Positions 302-30,419 of a DNA stretch of 56,639 bases are shown here, piece by piece. The notes beneath the pieces were generated by a model that worked only from the letters and a program-made list of their open reading frames with translations, ran no database searches and was not told the DNA's origin. Source of the DNA: Candidatus Jordarchaeia archaeon (GTDB taxonomy: Archaea > Asgardarchaeota > Jordiarchaeia > Jordiarchaeales > Jordiarchaeaceae); contig JAHQXB010000176.1 of the NCBI GenBank assembly GCA_029856435.1, positions 1 to 56,639 of the forward strand, given 5' to 3'. Numbering within the stretch: the first letter of the stretch is position 1; the number at the start of each line of letters is the position of its first letter. The translations under genes were made by a program, and so were the position numbers.

Positions 302-694
302 TTGGCAACTGTAGAGGATTCAGACGCCTGTTTTCATTTTGGCGTTGAAAGAATTAAGAAGATTCATAAGGAAGGTCTGGGTGAGGGATGGGAACCTTTT
401 ACAGTGGTGATGTGGCTGGAAGACTTGAAACGAGGGTACTGGTACAAGTTTGAGAAAGACGGTATCCTTGAAGACGCAAAAATAGTGACTGGCGAACCGC
501 CTGAAGCCACAGCTGTTGTCTATATTTCAAGCGACGATTGGGTGGGACACCACACGAAAGAAGTGGATTTGGCTGAAAAATACTTTTCCGGCGCAATGAA
601 GGTTAAGGGCGACGTGGTGGTTTTACAACAGTATCAAACCTATGACTCTTATGAACCCTACTATCCTCCGGGACATCCTAAACACAAAAAATAA
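302..694 (+). CDS. SCP2 sterol/lipid-binding domain protein
   Basis: TTG start after GGAGGT; C-terminal YFSGAMKVKGD matches the SCP2 signature (f..GklKv.Gd); 130 aa. Confidence 0.7.
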   Translation: MATVEDSDACFHFGVERIKKIHKEGLGEGWEPFTVVMWLEDLKRGYWYKFEKDGILEDAKIVTGEPPEATAVVYISSDDWVGHHTKEVDLAEKYFSGAMKVKGDVVVLQQYQTYDSYEPYYPPGHPKHKK

Positions 695-876: not shown

Positions 877-2562
877 TTACACGGTTTGTGGTTTAAATTC
901 TCCAAACACTTCTCTTAAAACCTGGCATATTTCTCCCAGTGTGGCGTAGGCTTTAACTGCTTCTATGAGGGTGGGCATAAGATTACATTTTTCCTGCTTT
1001 GCCTCTTCTCGCAGCTTTTCAAGGAGGCTGTCCACCAGTTTATTGTCGCGTTCCTCTTTTACCTTTTTGATGTTGAAAATCGCCTCCTTTTCAATTTGGG
1101 GGTCTAATCTGTGTAGGGATAGATGAGGCTTTTCGCCGGTTTGAAACTTGTTAACTCCTACTATGATTCTTTCGCCCCTTTCCACTTCCTTCTGGTATTT
1201 GTAAGCCATTGAGGCTATTTCCTTCTGAACGTAACCCTTCTCTATGGCTTTCACCATTCCCCCCATTTCATCAATTTCCCTAATATAGTCCAGTGCCTGC
1301 TCTTCAAGTTTGTCTGTCAAAGTTTCTACAAAGTATGAGCCTCCAAGGGGATCTATGGTGTTGACGACACCGCTTTCGTAGGCTATTATCTGCTGGGTTC
1401 TTAAGGCTATTCTCACAGATTCCTCGGTGGGGAGAGCTAGGGCTTCATCCATGCTGTTTGTGTGTAGGGATTGGGTTCCGCCTAGAATGGCGGCTAATGC
1501 TTGGATTGCTACTCTTATTATGTTGTTTTCTGGCTGTTGGGCGGTTAGGGTTGAGCCCGCGGTTTGGGTGTGGAACCTTAGCTGCAGGGAGTTTTCCTCC
1601 CTAGCTTTAAATCTGTTCCTCATTATTTTGGCCCACATTCTTCGCGCAGCCCTAAATTTTGCTATTTCTTCGAAGAAGTCGTTGTGTGAACTGAAGAAGA
1701 ATGATAGTCTTCCTGCGAATTGGTCTATGTCTAATCCTCTCTCCAGGACCGCGTTTACATAGCATATTCCGTTGGCGAGGGTGAAGGCGATTTCTTGAAC
1801 CGCGTTGGCACCCGCCTCCCTTATATGGTATCCCGAAATGGATATGGGGTTCCATCGGGGCATATTCTTGGTGCAGTATTCTATTACGTCGGTAACCAGC
1901 CGCATAGAGGGCTTTGGTGGGAAAATGTATGTTCCTCGGGCAACGTATTCCTTGAGAATGTCATTTTGAACTGTTCCCGCAAGTTTTGAAATGTCAACCC
2001 CCTGTTTTTGGGCAACCGCAATGTACATGGCTAATATGATTGCTGTGGGAGCGTTGATAGTCATAGAGGTGCTAACCTTGTCCAGCGGTATCCCCTCAAA
2101 AAGAGTCTCCATATCTTTAAGGGTGTCAATTATTACCCCCACTCTTCCAACCTCTCCCCGAGCAAGTGGATGGTCTGAATCGTAGCCCATCTGTGTGGGA
2201 AGGTCAAATGCTACGCTAAGGCCCGTTTGTCCCTGCTCAATAAGGTACTTGAATCTCTTATTGGTTTCCTTAGCTGACGCAAAACCCGCGTATTGCCTCA
2301 TGGTCCAGAGTCTTCCCCTATACATGGTGGGGTAAACGCCCCTAGTGTAGGGATAGTCTCCCGGAAACCCCAATTCTTCAACATATTTTTTCCCGACTCT
2401 GTCCAGCGGAGTATAAAGTCTATTCAAAATTATTCCCGAGGCGGATTGGAATATTTTCTCCCGTTCAGGGTTTTTCTCTAAAAACCTTTTGAGCTTTTCT
2501 TCCTCCCATCTTTTAAGACCTTTTTCTATATCTTGCAATTCCTCGATGTTATCCTTAGCCAT
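877..2562 (-). CDS. mcmA: Methylmalonyl-CoA mutase, substrate-binding (large) subunit, archaeal split type
   Basis: [66 protein letters not shown]; no B12-binding domain; ATG at 2562 has GAGGT 7 nt upstream. Confidence 0.95.
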
Positions 2563-2579
2563 TTTCAAAACCTCTTATT

Positions 2580-2951
2580 CTAAATAGGCTCAAAAATGAT
2601 TCCCATGGATGGTTTTCCCTCTGAGTCTACTGATACTTGTCCATAGGTAGGTTTGACCTTCATTCCTATTTCCACCTTTTCCCTCTCGGAGATCTGTCCA
2701 AATATTCTCACACCATTGTCGAATTCCACTATGCCAAACACGTAGGGCGGTTCACCCTTAAGGGTTTCAGGGAGGGCGTACAGCTTTGTGAAGGTTACAA
2801 CTGTGCCCCTATCTAAGGGTTCAGGGTAAATGTCTTCCAATTCTGAGGCTCTACACTTAATACACCTAATTCTTCCCGGATACTGAATCCTACCACAACT
2901 TTTACATTTAACTCTCCGAAGCTCTTCCATCATTTTATCCTTATTCTCCAT
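2580..2951 (-). CDS. DUF35-family Zn-ribbon/OB-fold protein
   Basis: CKSCG..YPGRIRCIKC rubredoxin-like knuckle followed by OB fold (GTVVTFT, PYVFGIVEFDNGVRIFGQI); ATG 2951 with GGGTGA upstream. Confidence 0.9.
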   Translation of the reverse strand: MENKDKMMEELRRVKCKSCGRIQYPGRIRCIKCRASELEDIYPEPLDRGTVVTFTKLYALPETLKGEPPYVFGIVEFDNGVRIFGQISEREKVEIGMKVKPTYGQVSVDSEGKPSMGIIFEPI

Positions 2952-3191
2952 TTTACCAATCACCCATAAATAGACAGAGAAAACCAATAATTAGAGTTAG
3001 TCATCCACCAATATTAAACTATTTCAATCCTCTCAAAAATAACAAATCCAACTTAATGGACGTAAAAAGTTTCAGGAGCAGGAACTCAAAGCTTCAAAAA
3101 CCGAACCACACACCAATCGCATGAATCAAAAAAACATAGAATGCACCAGAGAATTTTTACGCCCAATAAAAAAGAAAAGGTTGTGGGTTCT

Positions 3192-4142
3192 CTAAATTAA
3201 ACCCACCTTTTTGAAAATGTCTATAAACTCTGAGCTTGGAGGGGCCTTCTTAATCAATTCTTTAAGTTTGGGGCCCAATTCCTCCGGCGTCCAAGTGCCA
3301 TTCTTCTTCGCTTCTCCCACATCATGCCAAGACTGTAGAAGGAAAACAGTACCTCCCACAAGTCTAATTACCCTGCCCGTAATGTCTTTTGCGTCGTCTG
3401 AGGCTAAATAAACTACCAGAGGAGCAAGGTTTTGGGGCCCCAGCGGGTCATACCCAAACTTTTTAATCATCTCCTCGGGAGTACTCATTATGGGCGCTAT
3501 AGAAGGAGTTGCTTCTGTGGTCAACCTTGTCCTAGCTACAGGAACCACAGTATTTGCGGTCACCCCGTACTTCGCCATTTCCTTAGCTACAATATTCGTG
3601 AAGGCTACGATTCCCGCTTTGGCAGCTCCATAGTTGCTCTGACCCGGATTATAGAGCAAACCAGCATCGGAAGCAGTGTTTATTATTCTTCCGGCTACGG
3701 GTTTTCCTTCTTTGGACTGGGCTCTCCAGTAGTTGCAGGCGTGTCTGGTGCAGTTGAAGGTGCCCTTGAGGTGAACCGCTATTACTGCATCAAAATCTTC
3801 TTCTTCCATGTTGAATATCATTTTGTCTCTGAGGATTCCCGCATTGTTAACCAGTATGTCCAATTTGCCAAAGGTGCTGATGGCCTGATCAATTATTCTT
3901 TTTGCTCCCTGAAAGTTGGCTACATTCTCATAGTTGGGAGCAGCTTCTCCTCCCATCTTCTTTATTTCATTTACTACCTCGTCGGCGGGTCCGTGGAACT
4001 CACCTTTTCCATCGTGGCTTCCGCCCATATCGTTAACAATTACCTTTGCCCCATACTTTGCAAGGAGTAAGGCTTCTTCACGGCCTAATCCTCTACCGGC
4101 ACCAGTTACTATAGCCACCTTACCTTCAAGCATCTTTGCCAT
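3192..4142 (-). CDS. SDR oxidoreductase, MFE-2/hydroxyacyl-CoA dehydrogenase-like (paralog 1)
   Basis: TGAGRGLG, VNDMGG, NNAGILRD, YGAAK (YxxxK); ATG 4142 with GGGGTGA upstream. Confidence 0.93.
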   Translation of the reverse strand: MAKMLEGKVAIVTGAGRGLGREEALLLAKYGAKVIVNDMGGSHDGKGEFHGPADEVVNEIKKMGGEAAPNYENVANFQGAKRIIDQAISTFGKLDILVNNAGILRDKMIFNMEEEDFDAVIAVHLKGTFNCTRHACNYWRAQSKEGKPVAGRIINTASDAGLLYNPGQSNYGAAKAGIVAFTNIVAKEMAKYGVTANTVVPVARTRLTTEATPSIAPIMSTPEEMIKKFGYDPLGPQNLAPLVVYLASDDAKDITGRVIRLVGGTVFLLQSWHDVGEAKKNGTWTPEELGPKLKELIKKAPPSSEFIDIFKKVGLI

Positions 4143-4274
4143 CTTCTCACCCCACAAAATGGCTGTCAATTAATCGTTTTAATAAACTCTTTCATAAGCC
4201 TTTCTGTAGCCATAAAATAAATTAATAATTAAACAGGTTATATCAACCCAGCTTGAATTAAGTGTTAGCTAGAT

Positions 4275-5081
4275 TTATTTTCTTGGACGATAGTCGAGAC
4301 TTCTCATGTTTGTTGGGTCTATTTTTTCTCTTATGAGGTTAATTTGGTTTATTGTAGGGGGTTCTGTCTCAGGAATCTTCTCCGGAATTAAGAGGGGGAA
4401 TCCCGTGTTCTCCTTTACTTCATCTAAAGAAATGCCCTTGTGTATAGATTCTAATCTCATTTTGCCACTTTTCTCGTCAAATCCCAATACGCAGAGGTCG
4501 GTGATTACTTTGCATGGGCCTCCCCCGCTAATTTTTAGGTTTTTTCTCCACTTGCCCTCATCTAAGTGTCCTGGACCCGTGATGAAGTCGACCTTTTCGA
4601 CGAAAACTCTGGGCTCATGTCTAGGTACATAAACAAGAAGCCTTCCACAAAGGTGTGCCACGTCACCTATCGCTACACCTCCTGGCAGTCGAACTTTAGG
4701 CTTAAAGTAGTCTCCCACCACGCTATTATTGATATTACCATACTGATCTATTTGACCCGGCCTTATGATTCCAAAGTCAATCTCTTCCCTCTGCCAGAGG
4801 TCGTGAAGGTCTGTTAACTTTATGAGAGCCTCAGCTTTAATGGTTCTAAAAGCAGCGGGGTCAGCCATCACCGCCATATAATTTGTGTAGGGATCAGGAT
4901 TAACCCACATCCCATAAATGCAGACCAGATTCGGCGCATGGGTTACGCGAGCAAGCTGAGTTGCCACTACCCCAATTGGGGTAGCCGCACCTAGATACAT
5001 TTTTTCTCCATCTCTCATCTCTCGAGCCAAACTCACAACCATTAGTTCGTCTATTCCATAATCTTTGGCGTATTCCGACAT
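4275..5081 (-). CDS. Class I CoA-transferase-fold beta subunit (GctB-like) lacking the catalytic Glu
   Basis: LARVTHAPNL, GQIDQYGNIN, RVFVEKVDFITGPG, VITDLCVLGFD, HKGISLDEVKENTGF; PNLVCIYG where active enzymes have P....ExG. Confidence 0.88.
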   Translation of the reverse strand: MSEYAKDYGIDELMVVSLAREMRDGEKMYLGAATPIGVVATQLARVTHAPNLVCIYGMWVNPDPYTNYMAVMADPAAFRTIKAEALIKLTDLHDLWQREEIDFGIIRPGQIDQYGNINNSVVGDYFKPKVRLPGGVAIGDVAHLCGRLLVYVPRHEPRVFVEKVDFITGPGHLDEGKWRKNLKISGGGPCKVITDLCVLGFDEKSGKMRLESIHKGISLDEVKENTGFPLLIPEKIPETEPPTINQINLIREKIDPTNMRSLDYRPRK

Positions 5082-5096
5082 TTTTCATCCTCCCTT

Positions 5097-5939
5097 TCAG
5101 CCCCTTTTTACCTTTTTCAGGTATTCCTCATGGCCTTCAACTGAGTAAATGTACTTATCCAAATACTCTTTGTAAGCTTCAGGTTTACTGGAAGCCATAG
5201 TGTATTCTGTAATGTGGGGCACATCCATAGTATACAGTGGCAGAAGACCGGTGGGATGAGCCCCGTAGGGAGCCTCCACTATGAGGTCAACTTCATATTT
5301 CGGTAGCATTAATCTGGCGTCTTTTCCTGGTTCTCCTTCTACCACCTTCTCCACGGTGACTATGGTTTTTTTAGCCGCTTGGGCGAATGCTACCAGTAAG
5401 TCGGTCATTATCTGGGATTCCACCGCGTAAATGTTTCCAAGGGAGTCACTCTGATAGGCGTGTATTAGCGCTACGTCAAGTTTGGTTGCTGGTACTGCTA
5501 CAGTTTTCTGGTTTGTTATGGGGCAGTCGAAAACTTTAAAGTCAGTATTAATTTTCAGCAGATCCGAACCTAAAAGTGACCTAGTGGGTAGGAAGCTCAC
5601 TCCCATAGCTGCGGCTCTGAGGCCCAACACAAAGGTTAGCTCACTGTACTCTTTGAAACTTATTTCACCACTCTCAACTTTGCTACGGAAGTTTGGAGCA
5701 AATCCCATCATGGGGAAACCAACGTAGGCCGCGCAAATTCTTTTAGAACAACCAGAGCCCACCAGCAGATCTACATCTATATCGCCCATAAGGGAATACA
5801 CAGTTAAATCTTGAATTTTTTGTTTTATGATTTCCCTTACGGCAGCCATAGGTTTATAGACCAGAGATGCACCAGCAATTCCTACAGTGTCTCCCTTTTT
5901 TATTTCACTTACTGCTTTCTGTAAACTCACAATCTTCAT
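5097..5939 (-). CDS. Class I CoA-transferase-fold alpha subunit (GctA/IpdA-like)
   Basis: KPMAAVREII, LRAAAMGVSFLP, DVALIHA..SDSLGN, VEAPYGAHPT; immediately upstream of the beta gene. Confidence 0.9.
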   Translation of the reverse strand: MKIVSLQKAVSEIKKGDTVGIAGASLVYKPMAAVREIIKQKIQDLTVYSLMGDIDVDLLVGSGCSKRICAAYVGFPMMGFAPNFRSKVESGEISFKEYSELTFVLGLRAAAMGVSFLPTRSLLGSDLLKINTDFKVFDCPITNQKTVAVPATKLDVALIHAYQSDSLGNIYAVESQIMTDLLVAFAQAAKKTIVTVEKVVEGEPGKDARLMLPKYEVDLIVEAPYGAHPTGLLPLYTMDVPHITEYTMASSKPEAYKEYLDKYIYSVEGHEEYLKKVKRG

Positions 5940-6880: not shown

Positions 6881-7306
6881 ATGTCAGAAACAAAATCCGA
6901 GTTTGGAGATCTAAAGGAATTCTTGCCTGGAACATTGACTAAACCTTTGAATTCTCAGAGTTTACTAATTGGCTCTAAATGTAAAAACTGTGGAAAAATT
7001 TTCTTTCCGAAAAAGAAACTTTGTACAAATTGTTACACCTGGGACAAAATGGAGGAAACAACCCTGAGCAAAAGGGGAAAGATATTCTCCTGGACTGTTT
7101 CCAGTATGTATGGTCTCCCACCGATTCCCTTTGGATACGTCGACTTACCAGAAGGTATTAGGTTATTCACCCAATTTACAGAATGCGACCCCTGTGAGCA
7201 AAATCTGAAAATAGGAATGGAGGTAGAGATGGTGGTCCAAAAAATGAATGACCAATTCTTCACAAAGGAATTTGTGGGCTACAAATTTAGACCAGTAAAA
7301 AAATAG
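6881..7306 (+). CDS. DUF35-family Zn-ribbon/OB-fold protein (thiolase partner)
   Basis: CKNCG..FFPKKKLCTNC plus OB fold (GKIFSWT, GYVDLPEGIRLF); directly upstream of a thiolase. Confidence 0.92.
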   Translation: MSETKSEFGDLKEFLPGTLTKPLNSQSLLIGSKCKNCGKIFFPKKKLCTNCYTWDKMEETTLSKRGKIFSWTVSSMYGLPPIPFGYVDLPEGIRLFTQFTECDPCEQNLKIGMEVEMVVQKMNDQFFTKEFVGYKFRPVKK

Positions 7307-7321
7307 GGAGGGTAGAGAAAA

Positions 7322-8515
7322 GTGAGAAAGGTTGCTGTTGTTGGGGTAGGAATGACAAAGTTTGGAACCCTTTATGATCAGGATGTGAAGGAATTAACTG
7401 AGGAGGCAGTGTGGAACGCCCTTCAAGACGGGGGAGTTGACCCGAAAGACATACAAGTGGCATACTGTGGCAATGCGGTGCCTGGAGTGGTAAGTAGACA
7501 GGCGGGCATCACCGGCCAAATAGGTTTAATGAGTGTTGGAATAACTGGAATACCCATCACAACTGTTTCCAACGCTTGCTCCAGCAGCACATGCGCCTTC
7601 AGAGAAACCTACTTTGCCATAGCCACCGGCCTTTACGATGTTGGCCTCGCCTTCGGAGTCGAAAAAACAGTAATGAGGAAAGAAGAAGCAACTATGGCTA
7701 CGCTGGCCATAGGCTCCAAATTTCTAAGCTTGGGGGCAGACGGAGAGCTGGAAAACATATATGGTATATCCTTCCCGGGATTTTTTGCCAACGCAGCCCA
7801 GAGGCATATGCACCTTTACGGAACCACCCGAGAGCAGATGGCTAAAGTAGCCGTAAAAAATCATCACAATGCCACTATGAATCCCTATGCCCAATTCCAA
7901 AAGGAGATCACAATCGAAGATGTTTTTAAATCTCGCATGGTTGCTTATCCCCTAACTGTCTATGACTGCTGTCCATTGTCAGACGGAGCCTCAGCTGCAA
8001 TTCTAGTGGGTGAAGAGCTGGCGAAAAAGTACACCGACACCCCTATATGGATCAAAGGTACTGGCCAAGCCTCAGGCGTCTATTCCAATACTGAGGAAGA
8101 TTTGACTAGGTTTTTACCAACTATAATGGCTAGCAGAGAAGCCTATAAACAAGCTAAAATAGAGCCCAAAGATATTGATTTTGCTGAGGTTCACGACTGC
8201 TTCACCATCTCTGAAATCATTCACTACGAGGATCTCGGGTGGTGCAAGAAGGGAGAGGGAGGAAAAATGATAGAGGAGGGAATAACGGAGCTTGGAGGCA
8301 AACTGCCCGTGAATCCGGGAGGTGGACTGAAGGCACGGGGACACCCAGTAGCAGCCACGGGAACAGCGCAAATAGCTGAGTTAGTCTGGCAACTGAGGGG
8401 CGAAGCTGGAAAACGCCAAGTGGATGGAGCTGAAATTGGATTAGCGCATACTCTAGGGGGACTAACCCACGCAGACGTTGCAGTAAGCGCTGTAGTAATT
8501 CTGGGAAGAGAATAA
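7322..8515 (+). CDS. Thiolase, SCP-x/archaeal type, with intact catalytic Cys
   Basis: GMTKFG, NACSSS (nucleophile Cys), EVHDCF, GGLKARGHPVAATG; GTG start after GGAGGGT. Confidence 0.95.
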   Translation: MRKVAVVGVGMTKFGTLYDQDVKELTEEAVWNALQDGGVDPKDIQVAYCGNAVPGVVSRQAGITGQIGLMSVGITGIPITTVSNACSSSTCAFRETYFAIATGLYDVGLAFGVEKTVMRKEEATMATLAIGSKFLSLGADGELENIYGISFPGFFANAAQRHMHLYGTTREQMAKVAVKNHHNATMNPYAQFQKEITIEDVFKSRMVAYPLTVYDCCPLSDGASAAILVGEELAKKYTDTPIWIKGTGQASGVYSNTEEDLTRFLPTIMASREAYKQAKIEPKDIDFAEVHDCFTISEIIHYEDLGWCKKGEGGKMIEEGITELGGKLPVNPGGGLKARGHPVAATGTAQIAELVWQLRGEAGKRQVDGAEIGLAHTLGGLTHADVAVSAVVILGRE

Positions 8516-8571
8516 CGCATCATTCTCCATTTTTGAAATTAGGAATTTCCACAAATTGGGAGAGAGTGGTT

Positions 8572-9606
8572 ATGGTTGAATTAGAAGTGTTTGACAAAAC
8601 AATGTCTATGGAGGAAGCTGTTAAGAAATTTGTGAGAGATGGGGACTTATTGAGTATTGCTAGCACTGGCACTCCTTCCCCATACGCGGCGATTCATGAG
8701 ATTGTCAGACAAAAGAAAAGAAATTTGACTCTTCTACAGGCTGGTTCAGGACAAGAGACTGAGATACTTGTGTGGACCGGATGTGCGAAGAAATTTATAG
8801 CGTCTTATCAGGCGAGGGTAATGGCGGGTGAGAGGGCTTTTGACCGTGGTTTACGTAAGCACAAAGTGGAGGTGGAAGAATTTACAAATTACACGGTCAC
8901 AGCTATGCAGATGGCTGGGGCTTTAGGTCTACCCTGTTTTCCGGCTCCACTTTCTTTAGTGTGCACTGACATCTACCGCAAAAGAACGTTCATGGGTAAT
9001 AATAAGATAGTGGTTATGGATAATCCCTTCAAGGCTGGGGAGAAAATGGCCCTCATCCCCTCGATAGTAGCAGACGTCTCGGTAGTTCACGTTCAGAGAA
9101 TAGATAAGTATGGCAATGCTCAGGCTTGGGGTGGTCTTGCGTCCACTAAGTGGGGGGCGCTCTGCGGGAAAAAAATTATAGTTTCGGCTGAAGAAATGGT
9201 AGATCATGAAGTGGTGAAATTCAGTCCCAACTACACTATTATTCCCAGTTACAAAACAAGTGCAATTGTAATAGAGCCTTGGGGAGCCCATGCTACTGAC
9301 CTTACCGGTTACTATGATTTGGATATGCCATTTGGAATGCTTTATTATATGAGTTCCATTGGAGGGGATGAGAGCTTCCAAGCTTGGTTAGATGAATGGG
9401 TGTATGGCGTATCAAACCGTACAGAGTACTTGAGACACTATTCTGAAAAGTTTGGTCCCAAGGCTCTTGATAGACTTAGGGTGAAACATAGGCCGAGTTC
9501 TGAAGTGAATTATGGGGGAAGTTATCAGTCATACCGTGAAATGTTGGGCATCACTGATGAAATGATGGAAAAAAGCCCGGACTTGTTTGAGATAGAGGTG
9601 GAGTGA
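8572..9606 (+). CDS. Class I CoA-transferase alpha subunit (GctA-like) with C-terminal extension
   Basis: AAIHEIVRQ, MAGALGLPCFP, VHVQRIDKYGN, EPWGAHAT; start placed at ATG 8572. Confidence 0.9.
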   Translation: MVELEVFDKTMSMEEAVKKFVRDGDLLSIASTGTPSPYAAIHEIVRQKKRNLTLLQAGSGQETEILVWTGCAKKFIASYQARVMAGERAFDRGLRKHKVEVEEFTNYTVTAMQMAGALGLPCFPAPLSLVCTDIYRKRTFMGNNKIVVMDNPFKAGEKMALIPSIVADVSVVHVQRIDKYGNAQAWGGLASTKWGALCGKKIIVSAEEMVDHEVVKFSPNYTIIPSYKTSAIVIEPWGAHATDLTGYYDLDMPFGMLYYMSSIGGDESFQAWLDEWVYGVSNRTEYLRHYSEKFGPKALDRLRVKHRPSSEVNYGGSYQSYREMLGITDEMMEKSPDLFEIEVE

Positions 9607-10439
9607 AGAAGATGCCCAGAAAAATTAGGTTAACTTTGGACGAGATTATGTGCTCTGTCGCCTCAAGGGAGATTAGAGACTGGAATGTCGTCATAGTTGG
9701 CCACGGTTATCCTCTTCTTGCAGGCTACTTAGCCAAGAAGACTCACGCACCCCACGCCGTGCTAATTACGGAGTGCGGTTTGGTGGATCCAGATGTTTAC
9801 CGTCCCATGCAGCACCCAAACGATTTCTGCAGCACAAAGGGGGTTTCTATGTGTACTGATATACCTGACTTGTTTGCTTCAAACCTGTTTCGGGGATATG
9901 TTGATGTCGGTTTCCTGTCGGCTGCGGAGGTTGACAAGTATGGGAACATAAACACCTCCTACATTGGAGGGAAACACTTTGCAGGCAGTGGGGGAGCAAA
10001 TGAAATTGCGGGTTATGCCAAGAGAACAATCATTATGCTGAGACATGGAAAATTCGTTGAGGAATGTGAGTACATAACTACTCCGGGATACCTTGAGGGT
10101 TATGATTCACGTTACAAGGCGGGATTGCCGGAAGGGACAGGCCCCTCGATTCTGGTGAGCAGCAAGGGAGTTTTCCGTTTTGATGAGAAGACTAAAGAGA
10201 TGTACTTGGAGTCTTGCCATCCGGGTGTAACTGTGGAAGAGATTCAAAAGGAAATTCCTTGGAAACTTAAGATATCCCCTAACTTGAGGCAGACTTTGCC
10301 ACCCACAGAAGAGGAGCTTCGCATAATGAGGGAGTTTGCTCCAACAATATCACTCGGGCGATCCTTTTACGTGCAAATTATGATGAACTATATGCGAAAA
10401 TTCGTGGAGGACGCCCAAAAGGCAAAGTTGGGGAGCTGA
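9603..10439 (+). CDS. Class I CoA-transferase beta subunit (GctB-like) with catalytic Glu
   Basis: PHAVLITECG (Glu present), GFLSAAEVDKYGNIN, GSGGANEIA, HPGVTVEEIQ; overlaps the alpha stop codon. Confidence 0.92.
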   Translation: MKKMPRKIRLTLDEIMCSVASREIRDWNVVIVGHGYPLLAGYLAKKTHAPHAVLITECGLVDPDVYRPMQHPNDFCSTKGVSMCTDIPDLFASNLFRGYVDVGFLSAAEVDKYGNINTSYIGGKHFAGSGGANEIAGYAKRTIIMLRHGKFVEECEYITTPGYLEGYDSRYKAGLPEGTGPSILVSSKGVFRFDEKTKEMYLESCHPGVTVEEIQKEIPWKLKISPNLRQTLPPTEEELRIMREFAPTISLGRSFYVQIMMNYMRKFVEDAQKAKLGS

Positions 10440-10468
10440 AACAAGGGGAAACTGGGGGCAAAAATCTA

Positions 10469-12172
10469 TTGGAGTGTGGAAACTGGATAGACTTGTACGG
10501 AGACGCCATACTCAAGCCTTGGTACGAAATGGTAAACAAAAGTCCTTGGGTAGAAGAGAATAGGAGATGGCTAAAAGTTTTACCAAAAAGTTTTCCCAAA
10601 ACTTTGAACTACCCAGAAGTTCCCCTATTTGAAGTTTGCGACCAGGCAGCTTTAAGGTTTCGTAATAATATTTCCGTTTGCATGATACTCCAGGACCGAA
10701 AGTACTCCTATCTGGAGATGAAGTACTATAGTGATCAGCTTGCCTCAGCTCTACGCGACCATTTTAACATTGGGAAGGAAGTTTCAGTAGCAATCGATAC
10801 TTGGAATAGTCCCGAATTTGTTTTCAGCCTCTTTGGAGTAAACAAAACCGGAGCCTCGTGCACTCTAATAAACCCTCTATTGACAACAGAAGATATAGAA
10901 TATACTATTAACGACGCGGAAATAGTTGACACAATAATTGTGGACAGCAAAGTCTACCCTAAAGTTAAAGACATAAAAAAACTCAAAAATTTCATCATAG
11001 CAGGCCAAGAGGAAATACCGGGAACCATAAACTTCTGGAAACTAATAAGGGCTCATAAGCCCAAACCGCCTAGAGTAGAAATTGAACCCAAAGAAGACAT
11101 AGCGGCGCTAATATATACCGGAGGAACCACAGGTAGACCCAAGGGTGTTATGCTCACCCACTATAATCTAGTTGCAAACACCCTCCAGTGCGCCTACACT
11201 GGACAGCATCCCTTACAAGCACGATCAATGTTCGGAAGGGGAGTAACACTGATAACACTTCCCATATGCCATATTTCAGGGTATGTAATGCTACTTAATG
11301 CTGTCTATGAGGGCTCCATGCTGGTCATGGAAAATACCTTTGACCCCAAATACATTTGTGAAGCCATACAATGGTACAGGGTGACAAGGTTTCCAGTTGT
11401 TCCCACAATACTAGTTATGCTAATAAATTTCAAGGAAATAGCCAACTATGATCTCAGCTCTCTCACCCTCGTAGGATCCGGAGCCATGGCTTTAGCCCCA
11501 GAAATAGCCAACAAGTTCGAGGAGCTAACCGGTTTAAAGGTAGTTCAAGGAATGGGCCTCACAGAGTGCTGCGCAGCCGTACTCTCAAACCCCATTTGGT
11601 CACCCTCTCTCATAAAACCTGGAAGTGTAGGAATACCAGTTTTGGACACCGATGTTAAAATCGTTGACCCAGTTACTACGGAAGAGCTACCCGTGGGCCA
11701 AGAAGGAGAACTCTGGGTTAGAGGACCACAGTTGATGAAGGGATACTGGAAAAATCCCCAAGCTACAGAAGAGGCAGTTAAAAATGGCTGGATGCGCACC
11801 GGGGATTTAGCGGTGATGGATGAGGATGGCTACATCTATCTTTCTGGGAGGCTTAAAGATATCATAAAATATAAGGGTTACAAACTTTTCCCCGACGAAA
11901 TAGAAGCAAAATTGTATGAGCATCCCGCCGTAAAGGAGTGCGCAGTGCTTGGGATACCAAATCTAGTCTCAGGCGAAGAAATAAAAGCGTTCATAGTTCT
12001 CAAAGATGAATACCAAGGAAAAATAACAGAAAAGGAGATCATTAATTGGGCTAAGGACAAACTCGGTCCCATAAAATATCCCCGAATGGTAGAGTTTAGG
12101 GAAAGTTTACCAAAAACTCTATCTGGTAAAGTTTTAAGAAGAAAATTAAGAGAGCAAGAAATGCAAAAATAG
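10469..12172 (+). CDS. AMP-forming acyl-CoA synthetase (long-chain fatty acid-CoA ligase family)
   Basis: YTGGTTGRPKG P-loop, QGMGLTE, GWMRTGD, GRLKDIIK, PKTLSGK; true start may be ATG 10529. Confidence 0.95.
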   Translation: MECGNWIDLYGDAILKPWYEMVNKSPWVEENRRWLKVLPKSFPKTLNYPEVPLFEVCDQAALRFRNNISVCMILQDRKYSYLEMKYYSDQLASALRDHFNIGKEVSVAIDTWNSPEFVFSLFGVNKTGASCTLINPLLTTEDIEYTINDAEIVDTIIVDSKVYPKVKDIKKLKNFIIAGQEEIPGTINFWKLIRAHKPKPPRVEIEPKEDIAALIYTGGTTGRPKGVMLTHYNLVANTLQCAYTGQHPLQARSMFGRGVTLITLPICHISGYVMLLNAVYEGSMLVMENTFDPKYICEAIQWYRVTRFPVVPTILVMLINFKEIANYDLSSLTLVGSGAMALAPEIANKFEELTGLKVVQGMGLTECCAAVLSNPIWSPSLIKPGSVGIPVLDTDVKIVDPVTTEELPVGQEGELWVRGPQLMKGYWKNPQATEEAVKNGWMRTGDLAVMDEDGYIYLSGRLKDIIKYKGYKLFPDEIEAKLYEHPAVKECAVLGIPNLVSGEEIKAFIVLKDEYQGKITEKEIINWAKDKLGPIKYPRMVEFRESLPKTLSGKVLRRKLREQEMQK

Positions 12173-12267
12173 AAAATTGGAAGGTGATATGATTCTAAAA
12201 ATTTATCAAAGAGCTTTTCTTTATTATAAAATAAAAAATTATTCAATGTTAAAAAGGAGGGATTAAA

Positions 12268-13281
12268 ATGATAAAAACTAAACTAACAGAAATGCTAGGA
12301 ATAAAACACCCCATAATACAAGCGCCAATGGGACCCTTTTATACAACCAAGCTTGCAGCAGCGGTAACAAACGCAGGAGCACTCGGAATAGTATCGCATA
12401 CTAACCTCTTCGGCAAAGACCCCGTGAAAGAGATGGAAGAAAATGTTAAGTGGGTCGCAGAAAATAGTGAAGGACCCTTCGGAGTAAATATCAGAGTTGC
12501 CAGACTACAAATCGACGCCCCAGAACTAATCAAACTGGTAATAAGACTAAGAAAAGAAAACCCCGAGCTAAGAGAGCGACTAAAAGTAGTAATAACCTCT
12601 GCTGGAAACCCTAGACCACCGGCCACAGAATTCAAAGCCCACGATCCCGAACTAATACACTTCCACGTGGCTCCAACCCTTTATCATGCTCTGAAAGTAG
12701 ATTCACTATGCGACGGCATAATAGCCACTGGCTATGAGGGAGGAGGACATCAAAGCTATGAGGGAGTAAACACTTCAGTTCTCGTTCCTGAAGTGGTTGA
12801 AAAATGCAAGAAGCCAGTCGTAGCTTGTGGAGGCTTCTTTAATGGGCGGGGCCTTGCTGCCGCCCTAGCTATGGGCGCGGTGGGTATTCAGATGGGCACC
12901 CGCTTTATAGCGACTAGGGAGTGTGAATTTCACCAGAATTATAAAGAGTTCATTGTGAGGTCGAAAGATTCCGACACTGTTGTTACCCAAGGAATGCTGG
13001 GACCCATTAGGCTGCTTAAGAACAAGTACACGGAGGAGCATAAAGAGATTTTGACCAAAGAGGAAAAAATAGAGTTGGAGCAGAAACTGGACTTAGAGAA
13101 GCTTATTGAAGATCAAAAGAAATACGAGTTGGTATATCAGGGGGAGGTCGAGAGGGGCCCAGTACTTTGCGGGGAGTCCTGTGGTGGAGTTAATGATATT
13201 CCAACAGTGAAGGAAATTATTGAAAGGACAGTCAAGGAAGCAGAGGAAATACTTAGGGGAATCGGAAAACTTGTTGTATAA
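12268..13281 (+). CDS. Nitronate monooxygenase/FabK/IpdC-like FMN oxidoreductase
   Basis: HPIIQAPM, PFGVN, GYEGGGH, GLAAALAMGAVGIQMGTRF. Confidence 0.92.
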   Translation: MIKTKLTEMLGIKHPIIQAPMGPFYTTKLAAAVTNAGALGIVSHTNLFGKDPVKEMEENVKWVAENSEGPFGVNIRVARLQIDAPELIKLVIRLRKENPELRERLKVVITSAGNPRPPATEFKAHDPELIHFHVAPTLYHALKVDSLCDGIIATGYEGGGHQSYEGVNTSVLVPEVVEKCKKPVVACGGFFNGRGLAAALAMGAVGIQMGTRFIATRECEFHQNYKEFIVRSKDSDTVVTQGMLGPIRLLKNKYTEEHKEILTKEEKIELEQKLDLEKLIEDQKKYELVYQGEVERGPVLCGESCGGVNDIPTVKEIIERTVKEAEEILRGIGKLVV

Positions 13282-19469: not shown

Positions 19470-20423
19470 TTAGCTTAGGGCACTCATTATTATTCCTGCG
19501 AGTTCTTCTCTTGGGGGCTGTTTTGCTATTAGTTCTTTTAGTTTCGGCCCTATTTCTTCCGGTTTCCAGAATCCTTTTGGGGAGCGTTTTACGGGCTCGC
19601 TGGATCTCCAGCTGTGCAGTAGCCACATGTTTCCGCCGACTACTCTTATCACTTGGCCGGTTACGTCTTTAGCGTCGTCGGAGGCTAGGTAAACTACTAG
19701 GGGAGCCATGGCTTCGGGACTTAGGACGTCGTATCCATACTTCTTTTCGAAGTCCTCCTTGGTTCCCATCATGGGGGCCAGTGAGGGTGTGGCTTCGGTT
19801 GTTAGTCTGGTGCGGGCTACGGGTACTATCACATTTGCTGTTACCCCATATTTCGCCATTTCTTTGGCTACTATGAGGGTAAAGGCGGTTATTCCGGCTT
19901 TTGCGGCTCCGTAGTTGCTTTGGCCCGGGTTATATAGTAGCCCAGCGTCGGAGGTGGTGTTTATTATTCTTCCGGCTACGGGTTTTCCTTCTTTGGACTG
20001 GGCTCTCCAGTAGTTGCAGGCGTGTCTGGTGCAGTTGAAGGTGCCCTTGAGGTGAACCGCTATTACTGAGTCGAATTCTTCTTCTTCCATGTTGAATATC
20101 ATTTTGTCTCTGAGGATTCCCGCATTGTTAACCAGTATGTCCAATTTGCCGAAGGTGTTGATGGCTTGGTCAATTATTCTTTTTGCTCCTTGGAAGCTTG
20201 TGACGCTTTCGTAGTTGGGGGCGGCTTCTCCTCCCATTTTCTTGATTTCGTTTACTACATCGTCGGCGGGGCCGTGAAATTCGCCTTTTCCATCGTGGCT
20301 TCCGCCCATATCGTTCACTATGACTTTTGCCCCGTGTTTTGCTAGAAGTAAGGCTTCTTCTCGTCCTAAACCTCTTCCAGCGCCAGTAACTATAGCTACT
20401 TTACCTTTAAGTGATATTGGCAT
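19470..20423 (-). CDS. SDR oxidoreductase, MFE-2-like (paralog 2)
   Basis: Close paralog of 3192-4142 with the same motifs; ATG 20423 with GGGTGA upstream. Confidence 0.93.
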   Translation of the reverse strand: MPISLKGKVAIVTGAGRGLGREEALLLAKHGAKVIVNDMGGSHDGKGEFHGPADDVVNEIKKMGGEAAPNYESVTSFQGAKRIIDQAINTFGKLDILVNNAGILRDKMIFNMEEEEFDSVIAVHLKGTFNCTRHACNYWRAQSKEGKPVAGRIINTTSDAGLLYNPGQSNYGAAKAGITAFTLIVAKEMAKYGVTANVIVPVARTRLTTEATPSLAPMMGTKEDFEKKYGYDVLSPEAMAPLVVYLASDDAKDVTGQVIRVVGGNMWLLHSWRSSEPVKRSPKGFWKPEEIGPKLKELIAKQPPREELAGIIMSALS

Positions 20424-20508
20424 TTTTACATCACCCTGAAAGGCAACTATTAATGAGTCGATTACCATTTAGATAACTGATTCATAAGCATTTCGTCTAC
20501 TTTAAGAG

Positions 20509-28258: not shown

Positions 28259-28912
28259 TTGTCCGAGGAGAAGATCCGAAGGGATATTGAGGAAGCATTG
28301 CTGGAATTTGAAGAGGAAAAGCTGGCAAAAATCCTCAAAGACTCCCTAGATAGGGGTGTTGGTCCCCTGAAACTTATAGATGTGCTAACCGATGTTTTGA
28401 GAGATTTTGGAGATAAATTTGAGAGCGGCGAGTTCTTTCTGCCTCAGCTAATAGCTGCTGGAGACGCGGCTCAGGGCGCAATAAAAGAGGTCTTGGAACC
28501 TGCTCTCAAAAAAAGCGGCGAATCACGAGAACCCATAGGAAAGGTGGTTATTGGCACAGTTTTTGGAGACATACATGACATAGGGAAAAACATTGTGGCC
28601 TCCATGCTCTTCGCAAATGGATTTGAAGTTTACGACTTGGGCAAAGATGTCCAACCAGAAGAATTCGCCAAAAAAGCCAAGGAGCTAAACGCAGACATAG
28701 TGGGAGCCTCCGCCATGCTCACCATGACCATGCAAGAACAGCTTAATGTGGCAAAGGCTCTTGAAAAATATGGAATCCGCGACAAGGTCAAATACATTAT
28801 TGGCGGAGCCATAGTCACCGAGAAGTGGGCGGAGGAGATTGGAGCCGACGGATTTGCCACCGACGCCGTGGAGGCAGTGAAACTAGCCAAAGAGCTTCTA
28901 GGAGTAACATAA
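28259..28912 (+). CDS. Methyltransferase cognate corrinoid protein (MttC/MtbC-like)
   Basis: GDKFESGEFFLPQL cap domain, GDIHDIGKNIV (DxHxxG), SAML, IIGGA. Confidence 0.94.
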   Translation: MSEEKIRRDIEEALLEFEEEKLAKILKDSLDRGVGPLKLIDVLTDVLRDFGDKFESGEFFLPQLIAAGDAAQGAIKEVLEPALKKSGESREPIGKVVIGTVFGDIHDIGKNIVASMLFANGFEVYDLGKDVQPEEFAKKAKELNADIVGASAMLTMTMQEQLNVAKALEKYGIRDKVKYIIGGAIVTEKWAEEIGADGFATDAVEAVKLAKELLGVT

Positions 28913-28925
28913 GGAGGAGGAGGAT

Positions 28926-30419
28926 TTGAAGATTCCAAGATTAGAGGTTTTAAGTAGTGATGAGATTACACAGATCCACAATGCCTCCATGGAGATATTG
29001 GAGGATGTGGGAGTCAAAATAGATGTAGGCGAGGCGCGAGAAATACTGAAGAAGGCGGGAGCGGAAGTAAATGAGGAAAGCCACATGGTGAAAATGCCAG
29101 AGTACATGGTTAAAGAAGCTTTAAATAAGGCTCCCAGTCAATTCATACTCTACGGCCGTGAGGAAAAGTTCAAGCTAAGAGTGGGAGGCGACACACTAAC
29201 CTTCACCTTCTCGCCCACCCCAGTTAAAATTATTGATTCAGAAACCGGAAGGGTCAGGGAAACCACTCTTAAGGACGTGGAGAACAAGTACCGACTGATA
29301 GATGCTCTAAAATACATTAACACTTCCCACACCGACGTTTGGGCCCACGACGTCCCCCTCACCACACTACACGCCTATGAAATATTGACTTGGGCTAAAA
29401 ACACGATAAAGTGTTTTGGAATAGGCCCCTATGGAGTTATGGCTTCCCAAGACGTAATAAATATGGTTTCCATGGTTGCAGGAGGAGAGGAAGAGCTCAT
29501 AAAGAAGCCCCGCATAATCGGCTTCTATAATCCCGTTAGTCCCCTGCAAACTTCGGACATTGTTATGAGGGGAATGATGATTTTTAACCGGTACAAACAG
29601 CCCATGATAATTGCACCCGAAGCCCAAGCGGGAGCCACTGCCCCCTCAACCCTCGCAGGCCTTCTAGTCCAACAAAACGCCGAAATACTCAGCAACCTAG
29701 TGCTCTGCGAGCTTGTTAGTCCGGGAACACCAGTACTCTATGGCACCGTCTCAACAATAACAGATATGCGCACCGGAAACATAGCCCTAGGCTCCATAGA
29801 AACCGGACTAATATATGCTGCCTCTGCTCAACTTGCGAAGTTCTACCGCCTTCCCTCGAGGGCACTGGCGGGAACAAGTGAGTCGATGCTTGTAGACATC
29901 CAAGCGGGATTCGAAAAGGCTCTCACTCTCTTCATGGCGGCTGCCGCCAGAATAAACTACATCACCTGCGCTGGAACCATCGAATCCAGCATAACAACAA
30001 ACATGGAGCTCATAATGATTGACGAGGAACTTATAGGAATGATTAGAAGATCCTTGGAAGGAATAGAAGTAAACGAAAACACCCTAGCCATAGATGTAAT
30101 AAAAGAGGTGGGTGCAGGTGGCTCATACTTAAGCCACAAACACACTCTCAAAAACTTCCAGAAGGAACAGTACATACCTTTCCTAATAGACAGGAGCAAG
30201 AGGGAAGTATGGGAAAAACGCGGCTCAAAAAGCATCATTGACGTTGCGAGGGAAAAATGGCAAAAAATACTGAAGGAACACCAACCAGAACCACTGGATA
30301 AAAGTGTGGAGAAAAAGCTCCTAGACTACCTAGAAATGGTGAAGAAAAGAACCCTAGACGACTACTTTAAAGCTGAAGGAATCGAGAGAAAACCAACTGG
30401 ACTACCCAACCTACCATAA
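28926..30419 (+). CDS. Trimethylamine methyltransferase (MttB) superfamily protein, pyrrolysine-free
   Basis: AGATAPSTLAG.L.QQNAE.L, PGTPVLYG, DMRTG, DIQAGFEK, GSYLSHKHT; no in-frame TAG. Confidence 0.92.
   Translation: MKIPRLEVLSSDEITQIHNASMEILEDVGVKIDVGEAREILKKAGAEVNEESHMVKMPEYMVKEALNKAPSQFILYGREEKFKLRVGGDTLTFTFSPTPVKIIDSETGRVRETTLKDVENKYRLIDALKYINTSHTDVWAHDVPLTTLHAYEILTWAKNTIKCFGIGPYGVMASQDVINMVSMVAGGEEELIKKPRIIGFYNPVSPLQTSDIVMRGMMIFNRYKQPMIIAPEAQAGATAPSTLAGLLVQQNAEILSNLVLCELVSPGTPVLYGTVSTITDMRTGNIALGSIETGLIYAASAQLAKFYRLPSRALAGTSESMLVDIQAGFEKALTLFMAAAARINYITCAGTIESSITTNMELIMIDEELIGMIRRSLEGIEVNENTLAIDVIKEVGAGGSYLSHKHTLKNFQKEQYIPFLIDRSKREVWEKRGSKSIIDVAREKWQKILKEHQPEPLDKSVEKKLLDYLEMVKKRTLDDYFKAEGIERKPTGLPNLP

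Follow-up and report, generated by a model that had tools for sequence, protein, structure and literature searches.

What does an enzyme of the coenzyme A (CoA)-transferase fold do once the glutamate that forms its covalent CoA intermediate is gone? The question is raised by a pair of genes at positions 4275-5939 of contig JAHQXB010000176.1 of the Asgard archaeon Candidatus Jordarchaeia archaeon, analysed here over a stretch of 56,639 nucleotides (the window). An earlier note, made from the sequence alone, had taken the pair for a CoA-transferase-fold heterodimer lacking the catalytic Glu and concluded that it probably carries out a new reaction. The fold and the missing residue are borne out by our analysis; the new reaction does not follow. 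We think it probable that the pair does not work by ping-pong transfer and that its catalysis is centred on alpha Glu100. More tentatively, we favour an IpdAB-style non-transferase that retains the CoA ester and acts as a C-C hydrolase or hydratase on 3-oxoacyl- or enoyl-CoA. The genes and codons on which the argument turns are the following.

5097..5939, minus strand: alpha subunit P0001, 280 amino acids, Pfam CoA_trans (PF01144), E 1.9e-29
5640..5642, minus strand: codon of alpha Glu100, candidate general base in the IpdA Glu105 column of an alignment with 6co6_A and 6coj_A
4275..5081, minus strand: beta subunit P0002, 268 amino acids, Pfam CoA_trans (PF01144), E 2.6e-16
4911..4913, minus strand: codon of beta Gly57, aligned to GctB Glu54, IpdB Gly57 and AibB Cys56 by HMMER and by a three-way alignment with Nocardia IpdB and P0007, the second beta subunit of the window
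4758..4763, minus strand: codons of beta Arg107-Pro108, aligned in place of the Gly-Gly of canonical G-G-A-Q-I-D

The two genes, 15 nucleotides (nt) apart, are confirmed as adjacent alpha and beta subunit genes of the GctAB-type class I CoA-transferase fold. Neither product reaches an NCBIfam equivalog cut-off. Among the structures in the PDB, P0001 matches GctA (1poi, 6.6e-35), IpdA (6co6/6con, 6.6e-31) and AibA (5mzw, 2.9e-30) by sequence, and P0002 matches GctB (1poi, 7.5e-29), IpdB (6co6/6con, 2.3e-15) and AibB (5mzw, 2.7e-15). AlphaFold2 models of the subunits, each modelled singly, are highly confident (predicted local distance difference test 95.1 for alpha and 87.8 for beta). The structural alignment with GctAB, IpdAB and AibAB gives template modelling (TM) scores of 0.91 to GctA (1poi_A), 0.91 to IpdA (6co6_A) and 0.84 to AibA (5mzw) for alpha, and of 0.81 to GctB, 0.80 to AibB and 0.78-0.80 to IpdB for beta. 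IpdAB and AibAB, which the note had named as precedents for members without the Glu, hold as such and are, to our knowledge, the only studied Glu-less members of this fold.

All motifs quoted earlier are present: APNLVCIYGMW spans residues 49-59 and GIIRPGQID residues 104-112 of beta, and KEYSE residues 96-100 of alpha. The nucleophilic Glu of the E-x-G motif (GctB Glu54) is absent from P0002, which has no acidic residue between positions 50 and 62 and places Gly57 in that column; the AibB chain 5n00 of the same alignment is the C56A variant. In IpdAB, too, Gly57-beta corresponds to the essential Glu54-beta of glutaconate CoA-transferase, and no CoA-transferase activity was seen for the enzyme (Crowe et al. 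2017, PMC5380842). Searching the sequences for an alternative nucleophile turned up no new acidic residue in beta and alpha Glu100 as the sole candidate. This last residue of KEYSE occupies the only column in which 6co6_A (REMDE) and 6coj_A (REMDA) differ, and that difference, together with the 6coj title "IpdAB E105A COCHEA-CoA complex", is how we identified IpdA Glu105. The note had thus correctly placed a Glu at the IpdA base. The same column holds Gln in GctA, Gly in AibA and Asn119 in P0006, the second alpha of the window. The partner of P0006, P0007 (9603-10439, plus strand), is the canonical beta against which P0002 had been set, with APHAVLITECG, GFLSAAEVD and its Glu57 intact. Alpha Glu97, invariant in the 27 alphas aligned from Glu-less pairs, is uninformative.

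Two further differences mark the beta subunit. The additional Arg that the note had pointed out is Arg107 in GIIRPGQID, and the glycine loop (G-x-G-G-x-x-D type) reads P-G-G-V-A-I-G-D in P0002 and G-S-G-G-A-N-D/E in the Glu-bearing paralogues of the genome. In the beta model Gly57 comes directly after strand 53-56 and Arg107 directly after strand 103-106. Since each follows a beta-strand, both are predicted to lie at C-terminal strand ends, where the active site of the fold is found, and the two may be spatial neighbours. In the alpha model Glu100 opens helix 100-112, right behind strand 94-97.

Is this a property of one pair or of a lineage? We compared 80 loci from species-representative genomes, collected with a 25-sequence alignment as query, together with metagenomic and same-genus loci. 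The 87 non-identical adjacent pairs include 48 with a Glu-bearing beta, whose alphas have Asn (30), His (17) or Leu (1) at the Glu100 column; the alphas of the 39 betas without it have Glu (28), Cys (5), Ile (3), Gly (2) or Val (1). Once non-adjacent pairs are included (120 loci, near-duplicates counted), betas with Glu are accompanied by alphas with Asn in 34 cases, His in 21, Leu in one and Glu in none, and betas without it by Glu in 43, Cys in six, Ile in three, Gly in two and Val in one. The Glu-bearing betas form one supported clade in the beta tree (Shimodaira-Hasegawa-like approximate likelihood ratio test, 97-98, starred), and the split recurs independently in the alpha tree (96, starred). 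Because the Glu state changes once on the beta tree, the association amounts to one deep split and not to repeated covariation: it is a clade-level pattern, for which no statistical covariation is claimed. The division without the beta Glu spans Asgard archaea, Bathyarchaeia, Acidobacteriota, Aquificota, Chloroflexota and Bacillota.

The position of IpdAB relative to this split is central to the argument. A genuine ipd locus was taken for the trees from a Nocardia farcinica record, in which the genes run SDR (short-chain dehydrogenase/reductase), SDR, echA20-like crotonase, ipdA, ipdB and ipdC-like NMO. Nocardia IpdB and IpdA both fall with the window pair on the side without the beta Glu (98 and 96, starred); as the trees are unrooted and the Ipd branch is long, this establishes the same side of the split and not a sister relation. 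P0001 matches IpdA at 34% identity (E 2e-38), compared with 29% (4e-33) for the canonical alpha of the window, and the canonical pair matches IpdAB at only about E 1e-12. Since the pair lies on the same side and has both signature residues in common with IpdAB, an IpdAB style of catalysis is the most likely, and for these same two reasons the lost nucleophile does not imply a new reaction. The pair would nevertheless count as a variant of IpdAB and not as its orthologue, because IpdB lacks Arg-Pro and the archaeal context is not a steroid one. The record itself (NZ_LN868939.1, 219257-234108) is listed in PLSDB as 'Nocardia farcinica plasmid 2'. It is 2.66 Mb long, carries a chromosomal-type echA20-ipdABC and has only 2 annotated features, none of them in 219257-234108, and probably represents a piece of a chromosome deposited as a plasmid.

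Nor is the absence of the Glu unusual. Searched exhaustively with HMMER, 1.84 billion representatives of 50%-identity clusters yielded 2,472 relatives at E<=1e-3, 176 of them at E<=1e-30. The E-x-G motif is missing from 111 of the best 150 relatives, present in 31 and partial in 8, in a sample that is biased towards the query. More than 100 distinct 50%-identity clusters lack the Glu, and natural alpha-beta fusions occur in both classes, Glu-bearing and Glu-less. Within this division the window beta falls in a starred clade of 21 rows in the beta tree, mainly Asgard with Bathyarchaeia besides, in which Arg-Pro replaces the canonical Gly-Gly. Its nearest group comprises seven rows reading I-Y-G-[MI]-W, sister to a Hod/Heimdall group reading Y-G-G-Y-W (98, starred), and named relatives of the protein come from Odin-, Hod-, Heimdall-, Hel- and Thorarchaeota. 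The motif occurs without exception in the 34 betas of one Glu-less subclade, and in 26 of the best 150 relatives. Glu-bearing betas have Gly at the two columns in 86% and 87% of cases, respectively, and Arg in none.

Both genes are under strong purifying selection. The ratio of nonsynonymous to synonymous substitution rates (dN/dS) is 0.051 for beta and 0.066 for alpha against a 93% orthologue, and 0.054 and 0.068 against an 84% orthologue. In orthologues at 69-94% identity, length and the residues at issue are unchanged, with Glu100, Arg107 and the CoA-binding core all kept. The missing Glu is therefore neither a chance feature nor one in decay.

The same genome (3.54 Mb, 181 contigs) provides an internal comparison. 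It encodes eight GctB-like genes, four with the E-x-G motif and four without the Glu. The three readable partner alphas of the former all have Asn at the Glu100 column; partners of the latter have Glu (three) or Asp-Ile (one). The pairs are located as follows.

C177:16024-17748: paralogous pair without beta Glu; in its alpha, Asp-Ile replaces Ser-Glu at the base site
C88:26510-28321: paralogous pair without beta Glu
C2:19043-20731: paralogous pair without beta Glu, adjoining two DUF35-thiolase pairs, an LplA-like gene and a gene for BKACE (beta-keto acid cleavage enzyme)
C129, C38, C7 and window 8533-10439: paralogous pairs with beta Glu; the match to the Glu-bearing beta of C38 (2547-3290, minus strand) contains one in-frame TAG

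What, then, could the substrate be? The genes around the pair offer some guidance. An SCP2-like gene on the plus strand is followed on the minus strand by genes for an acyl-CoA mutase large subunit, a DUF35 protein, an SDR, beta and alpha, with gaps from alpha to the mutase of 15, 105, 204 and 11 nt. Alpha and beta head a predicted operon with the SDR, DUF35 and mutase genes, in which the SDR would be co-transcribed with them.

302..694, plus strand: SCP2-like protein, convergent with the operon; weak Pfam SCP2 match (21.0 bits against a cut-off of 21.3)
877..2568, minus strand: large subunit of an acyl-CoA mutase, separated by 11 nt from the DUF35 gene upstream; Pfam MM_CoA_mutase 5.7e-237, TIGR00641 844 bits; same order in the same-genus genome G010
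2580..2987, minus strand: DUF35 protein (ChsH2-type OB fold and zinc ribbon); Pfam OB_ChsH2_C and zf-ChsH2; same order in G010
3192..4169, minus strand: SDR P0003 of MFE-2/Rv3548c type, 105 nt downstream of beta; NCBIfam PRK07791, 382.5 bits against a cut-off of 373
6881..13281, plus strand: divergent set of DUF35, SCP-x-type thiolase, canonical CoA-transferase alpha and beta, acyl-CoA ligase and FabK/IpdC-like NMO flavoenzyme; Pfam, NCBIfam
8533-10439, plus strand: canonical CoA-transferase pair P0006/P0007, 2.6 kb from the Glu-less pair

P0003 matches the SDR beside echA20-ipdABC in Nocardia farcinica with 297 bits, and an SDR of its type stays adjacent to the pair in the metagenomic contigs L002 and L004 and in G010. 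The flanking SDR of Nocardia corresponds to Rv3548c of the KstR2 regulon, an MFE-2-like enzyme with no assigned step (PMC5380842). The NMO flavoenzyme, 6 kb from the pair, matches Nocardia IpdC with 140 bits. The divergent gene set adjoins the orthologous pair in L001 (73% identity), L002/L003 (93%) and L038 (85%); L001 additionally has two MaoC hydratases, SCP2 and two HGD-D genes, and SCP2 genes also adjoin orthologous pairs in L001, L037 and G010. The two HGD-D genes follow the pair, and their scores, far below the cut-offs, leave benzoyl-CoA reductase and 2-hydroxyacyl-CoA dehydratase types ambiguous; a ring hydrolase for a benzoyl-CoA pathway would be speculative.

Other features of the window stand beside these. 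It holds two MFE-2-type SDR paralogues (3192-4169 and 19470-20468). In the cluster, every domain type of eukaryotic peroxisomal beta-oxidation occurs as a separate gene, namely MFE-2-type dehydrogenase, SCP-x-type thiolase and SCP2 (window 302-694, 3192-4169 and 7322-8515) and, in L001 (2029-2915), MaoC hydratase 2. At 28259-30419 a gene for a corrinoid-binding protein lies beside one for an MttB-family methyltransferase, which suggests the use of methylated amines in this Asgard genome.

Taken together, the lost nucleophile, a Glu at the IpdA base, the IpdAB side of the split, a canonical transferase next door and the SDR make a hydrolase or hydratase the best supported reading. In the mechanism we propose, the heterodimer would bind an acyl-CoA and polarise its thioester or enolate. 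Alpha Glu100, as general base, would add water to a 3-oxoacyl- or enoyl-CoA, leading to C-C cleavage by a retro-Claisen or retro-aldol reaction, or at least to hydration of the substrate, with the CoA ester kept. The co-transcribed MFE-2-type 3-hydroxyacyl-CoA dehydrogenase would supply the 3-oxo substrate, and beta Arg107, specific to the subclade, might bind a substrate carboxylate or stabilise an oxyanion. This scheme starts from the observed fold, residue pattern, tree position, purifying selection and conserved gene neighbourhood; the residue roles, the reaction type and the substrate class are inferred. Of the hydrolase, decarboxylase or retro-Claisen enzyme foreseen earlier, hydrolysis and C-C cleavage are best supported. 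An AibAB-type decarboxylase fits the residues poorly, with Gly in place of Cys and Glu in place of Gly.

Several observations weigh against an IpdAB-style hydrolase or hydratase. The Arg-Pro motif is absent from IpdB, so the active sites differ; by sequence, beta is closer to GctB (7.5e-29) than to IpdB (2.3e-15), and the IpdB branch has a length of 1.95, which makes its exact placement unsure. An independent-contrast test of beta Glu loss against alpha Glu gain finds one contrast and is without power. The alpha Glu is not universal in pairs without the beta Glu, some lineages having Cys, Gly or Ile, so the division probably holds several substrate specificities and perhaps several chemistries. 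Genomic context adds to this. No EchA20/MenB-like crotonase adjoins the pair, and the crotonases of the window match Nocardia EchA20 with only 45 bits. The 46-49% identical Hod/Heimdall pairs have no recurring metabolic neighbours and no pathway genes in common with the window, and neither do the neighbourhoods of L036 and L037 share any. A census of neighbours with single-sequence phmmer queries, an insensitive approach, finds no family-wide partner; only the mutase stands out, an MCM gene lying 6 kb or less from 5/40 Glu-less pairs and from 0/53 Glu-bearing ones, cases that are not phylogenetically independent.

The relatives in other lineages illustrate how varied these contexts are. In Aquificota (L045:5476-10895, and also L044, L049 and L052) a Glu-less pair, with an alpha Cys in the column of the IpdA Glu, sits between the large and the B12-binding small subunits of an acyl-CoA mutase; downstream come a crotonase and MeaB, and upstream an acyl-CoA dehydrogenase. 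So tight an operon suggests a mutase-coupled function in that lineage. Lokiarchaeial pairs have a mutase/B12/MeaB set nearby, and in L051 (6293-8873), L066 (6287-8879), L068 and L104 a nitroreductase-family gene of about 265 amino acids stands between alpha and beta. In L050 and L056 (Promethearchaeota) a stretch of about 4 kb holding four genes separates alpha from beta, and in L037 a double nitroreductase gene lies directly upstream of the orthologous pair. Acidobacterial pairs neighbour luciferase-like monooxygenases, SnoaL, SDR and ligase genes.

Could the pair be a CoA-transferase after all, with its nucleophile moved to the other subunit? Alpha Glu100, which sits in the active-site region of the partner subunit, would then form the anhydride and the enzyme-CoA thioester. 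By analogy with the E. coli operon scpA-argK-scpB-scpC, the Aquificota operon of L045, with mutase, crotonase, MeaB and pair, would likewise call for a transferase. We nonetheless regard this as quite unlikely. No CoA transfer was seen with IpdAB, whose Glu arrangement is the same; sister lineages have Cys, Gly or Ile in the Glu100 column, none of which could carry an enzyme-CoA thioester; and the canonical G-S-G-G-A-x-D stretch has become P-G-G-V-A-I-G-D. A canonical transferase is moreover already encoded beside the pair, and as this Glu-bearing pair lies only 2.6 kb away and co-occurs with it in L001, L002 and L038, a second transferase is not needed. An acyl-CoA thioesterase, in which Glu100 would activate water to hydrolyse the thioester, we judge to be just as improbable. 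GctB E54D is reported to be a hydrolase (Mack and Buckel 1997), and an exchange of Glu for Asp does turn class I CoA-transferases into hydrolases, an example being PDB 9cq2, 'CtfAB E46D active site mutant hydrolase'. Such variants, however, keep an acidic residue at the nucleophile position, where P0002 has Gly, and IpdAB, on the same side of the split, keeps its thioester (PMC5380842). To a fermentative anaerobe the loss of a thioester would also be expensive; the pair is nevertheless under strong conservation within a CoA-ester pathway cluster.

More can be said for a decarboxylase in the manner of AibAB, acting on a carboxy-acyl-CoA of the glutaconyl-, 3-methylglutaconyl- or methylmalonyl-CoA type, in which Arg107 would hold the carboxylate and Glu100 would protonate the enolate; even so, it seems unlikely to us. 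AibAB is a solved Glu-less member of the fold (TM 0.80-0.84, PMC7756340), Arg is a natural carboxylate ligand, two HGD-D genes follow the pair in L001, and the mutase large subunit belongs to the operon both here and in G010. Mutase genes likewise accompany the Glu-less pairs of Aquificota and lie near the Lokiarchaeial ones, but the counts given above lack phylogenetic independence, and the mutase-linked Aquificota pairs, without the Arg and with an alpha Cys, may represent another enzyme. The signature residues are not those of AibAB (Gly57 and not Cys56, Glu100 and not Gly), and Pfam scans of the window show no context of 3-hydroxy-3-methylglutaryl-CoA (HMG-CoA) synthase or LiuC/AibC type. 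The mutase link would suit an epimerase as well, and Glu and Cys alternate at one alpha column as would be expected of a proton-transfer residue. These points are consistent with an isomerase, epimerase or plain hydratase that works on an acyl-CoA carbanion or enolate with Glu100 as its sole acid/base and cleaves no C-C bond. Such an activity has no precedent in the CoA-transferase fold, and with crotonase and MaoC hydratases already encoded in the window or in L001 we consider it a poor candidate, improbable overall. Finally, a pair that has lost the canonical nucleophile might be a non-catalytic remnant or scaffold. This is very hard to reconcile with dN/dS values of 0.05-0.07, with the retention of Glu100, Arg107 and the CoA-binding core across orthologues and with two confident models, and we give it hardly any credence.

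Within the favoured IpdAB-style reading, a more specific proposal, which we consider doubtful, is that Asgard archaea have an Ipd-like catabolic module that works without oxygen and opens alicyclic or branched acyl-CoAs, with the pair as its C-C-cleaving hydrolase. Such a module would comprise an acyl-CoA ligase or CoA-transferase, the MFE-2-type dehydrogenase, the FabK/IpdC-like flavoenzyme, the DUF35-thiolase, SCP2 and the mutase, and its substrates would be acyl-CoAs derived from isoprenoids, steroids or reduced aromatics. If this were true, the Arg107-Pro108 subclade would represent a distinct, previously unrecognised enzyme class, widespread in sediment archaea.

The unit that carries the pair is unevenly distributed. 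One same-genus genome, G010, has the same operon arrangement at 87% nucleotide identity; in the other four of the five same-genus genomes (one of them complete) no orthologue was found, the best matches being paralogues at 41-47%. In the three 93%-identical metagenomic contigs L002 (8358-9002), L003 (7736-8380) and L004 (623-1267), a gene for an IS66-family transposase separates the pair from the divergent DUF35-thiolase operon. With an orthologue in 1/5 same-genus genomes and IS66 beside it, the unit looks accessory and mobile.

These findings place IpdAB inside a large, phylogenetically wide and almost unstudied division that is routinely annotated as "glutaconate CoA-transferase". Metabolic reconstructions that read Glu-less pairs as CoA-transferases, for example in glutamate or butanoate fermentation of Asgard genomes, are therefore probably wrong. 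In the literature we found no archaeal or Asgard Glu-less GctAB homologue and no broader survey. Beyond the earlier observation, the analysis adds a position for IpdAB in the trees of both subunits, the Arg-Pro subclade, the link to an Rv3548c-type SDR, estimates of selection and the uneven distribution of the unit. A function established for one archaeal member would extend to more than 100 50%-identity clusters, and could show by what route C-C bonds are broken in the CoA-ester pathways of anaerobic archaea.

How does the pair compare with the systems known for this fold? GctAB of Acidaminococcus fermentans (1poi) gives both subunits their best match, in sequence as in fold. It differs at each of the decisive positions: GctB has Glu54 where P0002 has Gly57, GctA has Gln where P0001 has Glu100, and G-G-A-Q-I-D and G-S-G-G-A-N stand in place of R-P-G-Q-I-D and G-G-V-A-I-G. 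The engineered CtfAB E46D (9cq2) is similar in that loss of the proper nucleophile makes a hydrolase of the fold; it is, however, a laboratory mutant that still has an acidic residue at the site and hydrolyses the thioester itself. AibAB, the 3-methylglutaconyl-CoA decarboxylase of Myxococcus xanthus (5mzw), has the same fold and likewise lacks the catalytic Glu, but AibB Cys56 corresponds to a Gly here and the Gly of AibA to alpha Glu100; genes for HMG-CoA synthase, LiuC and AibC were found nowhere in Pfam scans of the whole window. The signature residues are shared with IpdAB / ScdL1L2, the COCHEA-CoA ring-C hydrolase of steroid catabolism (6co6, 6co9, 6coj, 6con). Identity to it is only 34% in alpha and 28% in beta, IpdB is without the Arg107-Pro108 motif, and the host of the window pair is an anaerobic Asgard archaeon with no EchA20-type crotonase or KstR2-style regulon, where the substrate is probably not a steroid fragment. 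Compared with the ipd locus, the window has an acyl-CoA ligase and a thiolase, and an EchA20-like crotonase is not adjacent. The likeness nonetheless extends from the heterodimer and the fold to beta Gly57 at the lost nucleophile position, an alpha Glu aligned with Glu105, placement together on one side of the split, and an Rv3548c-type SDR and a FabK-like NMO nearby.

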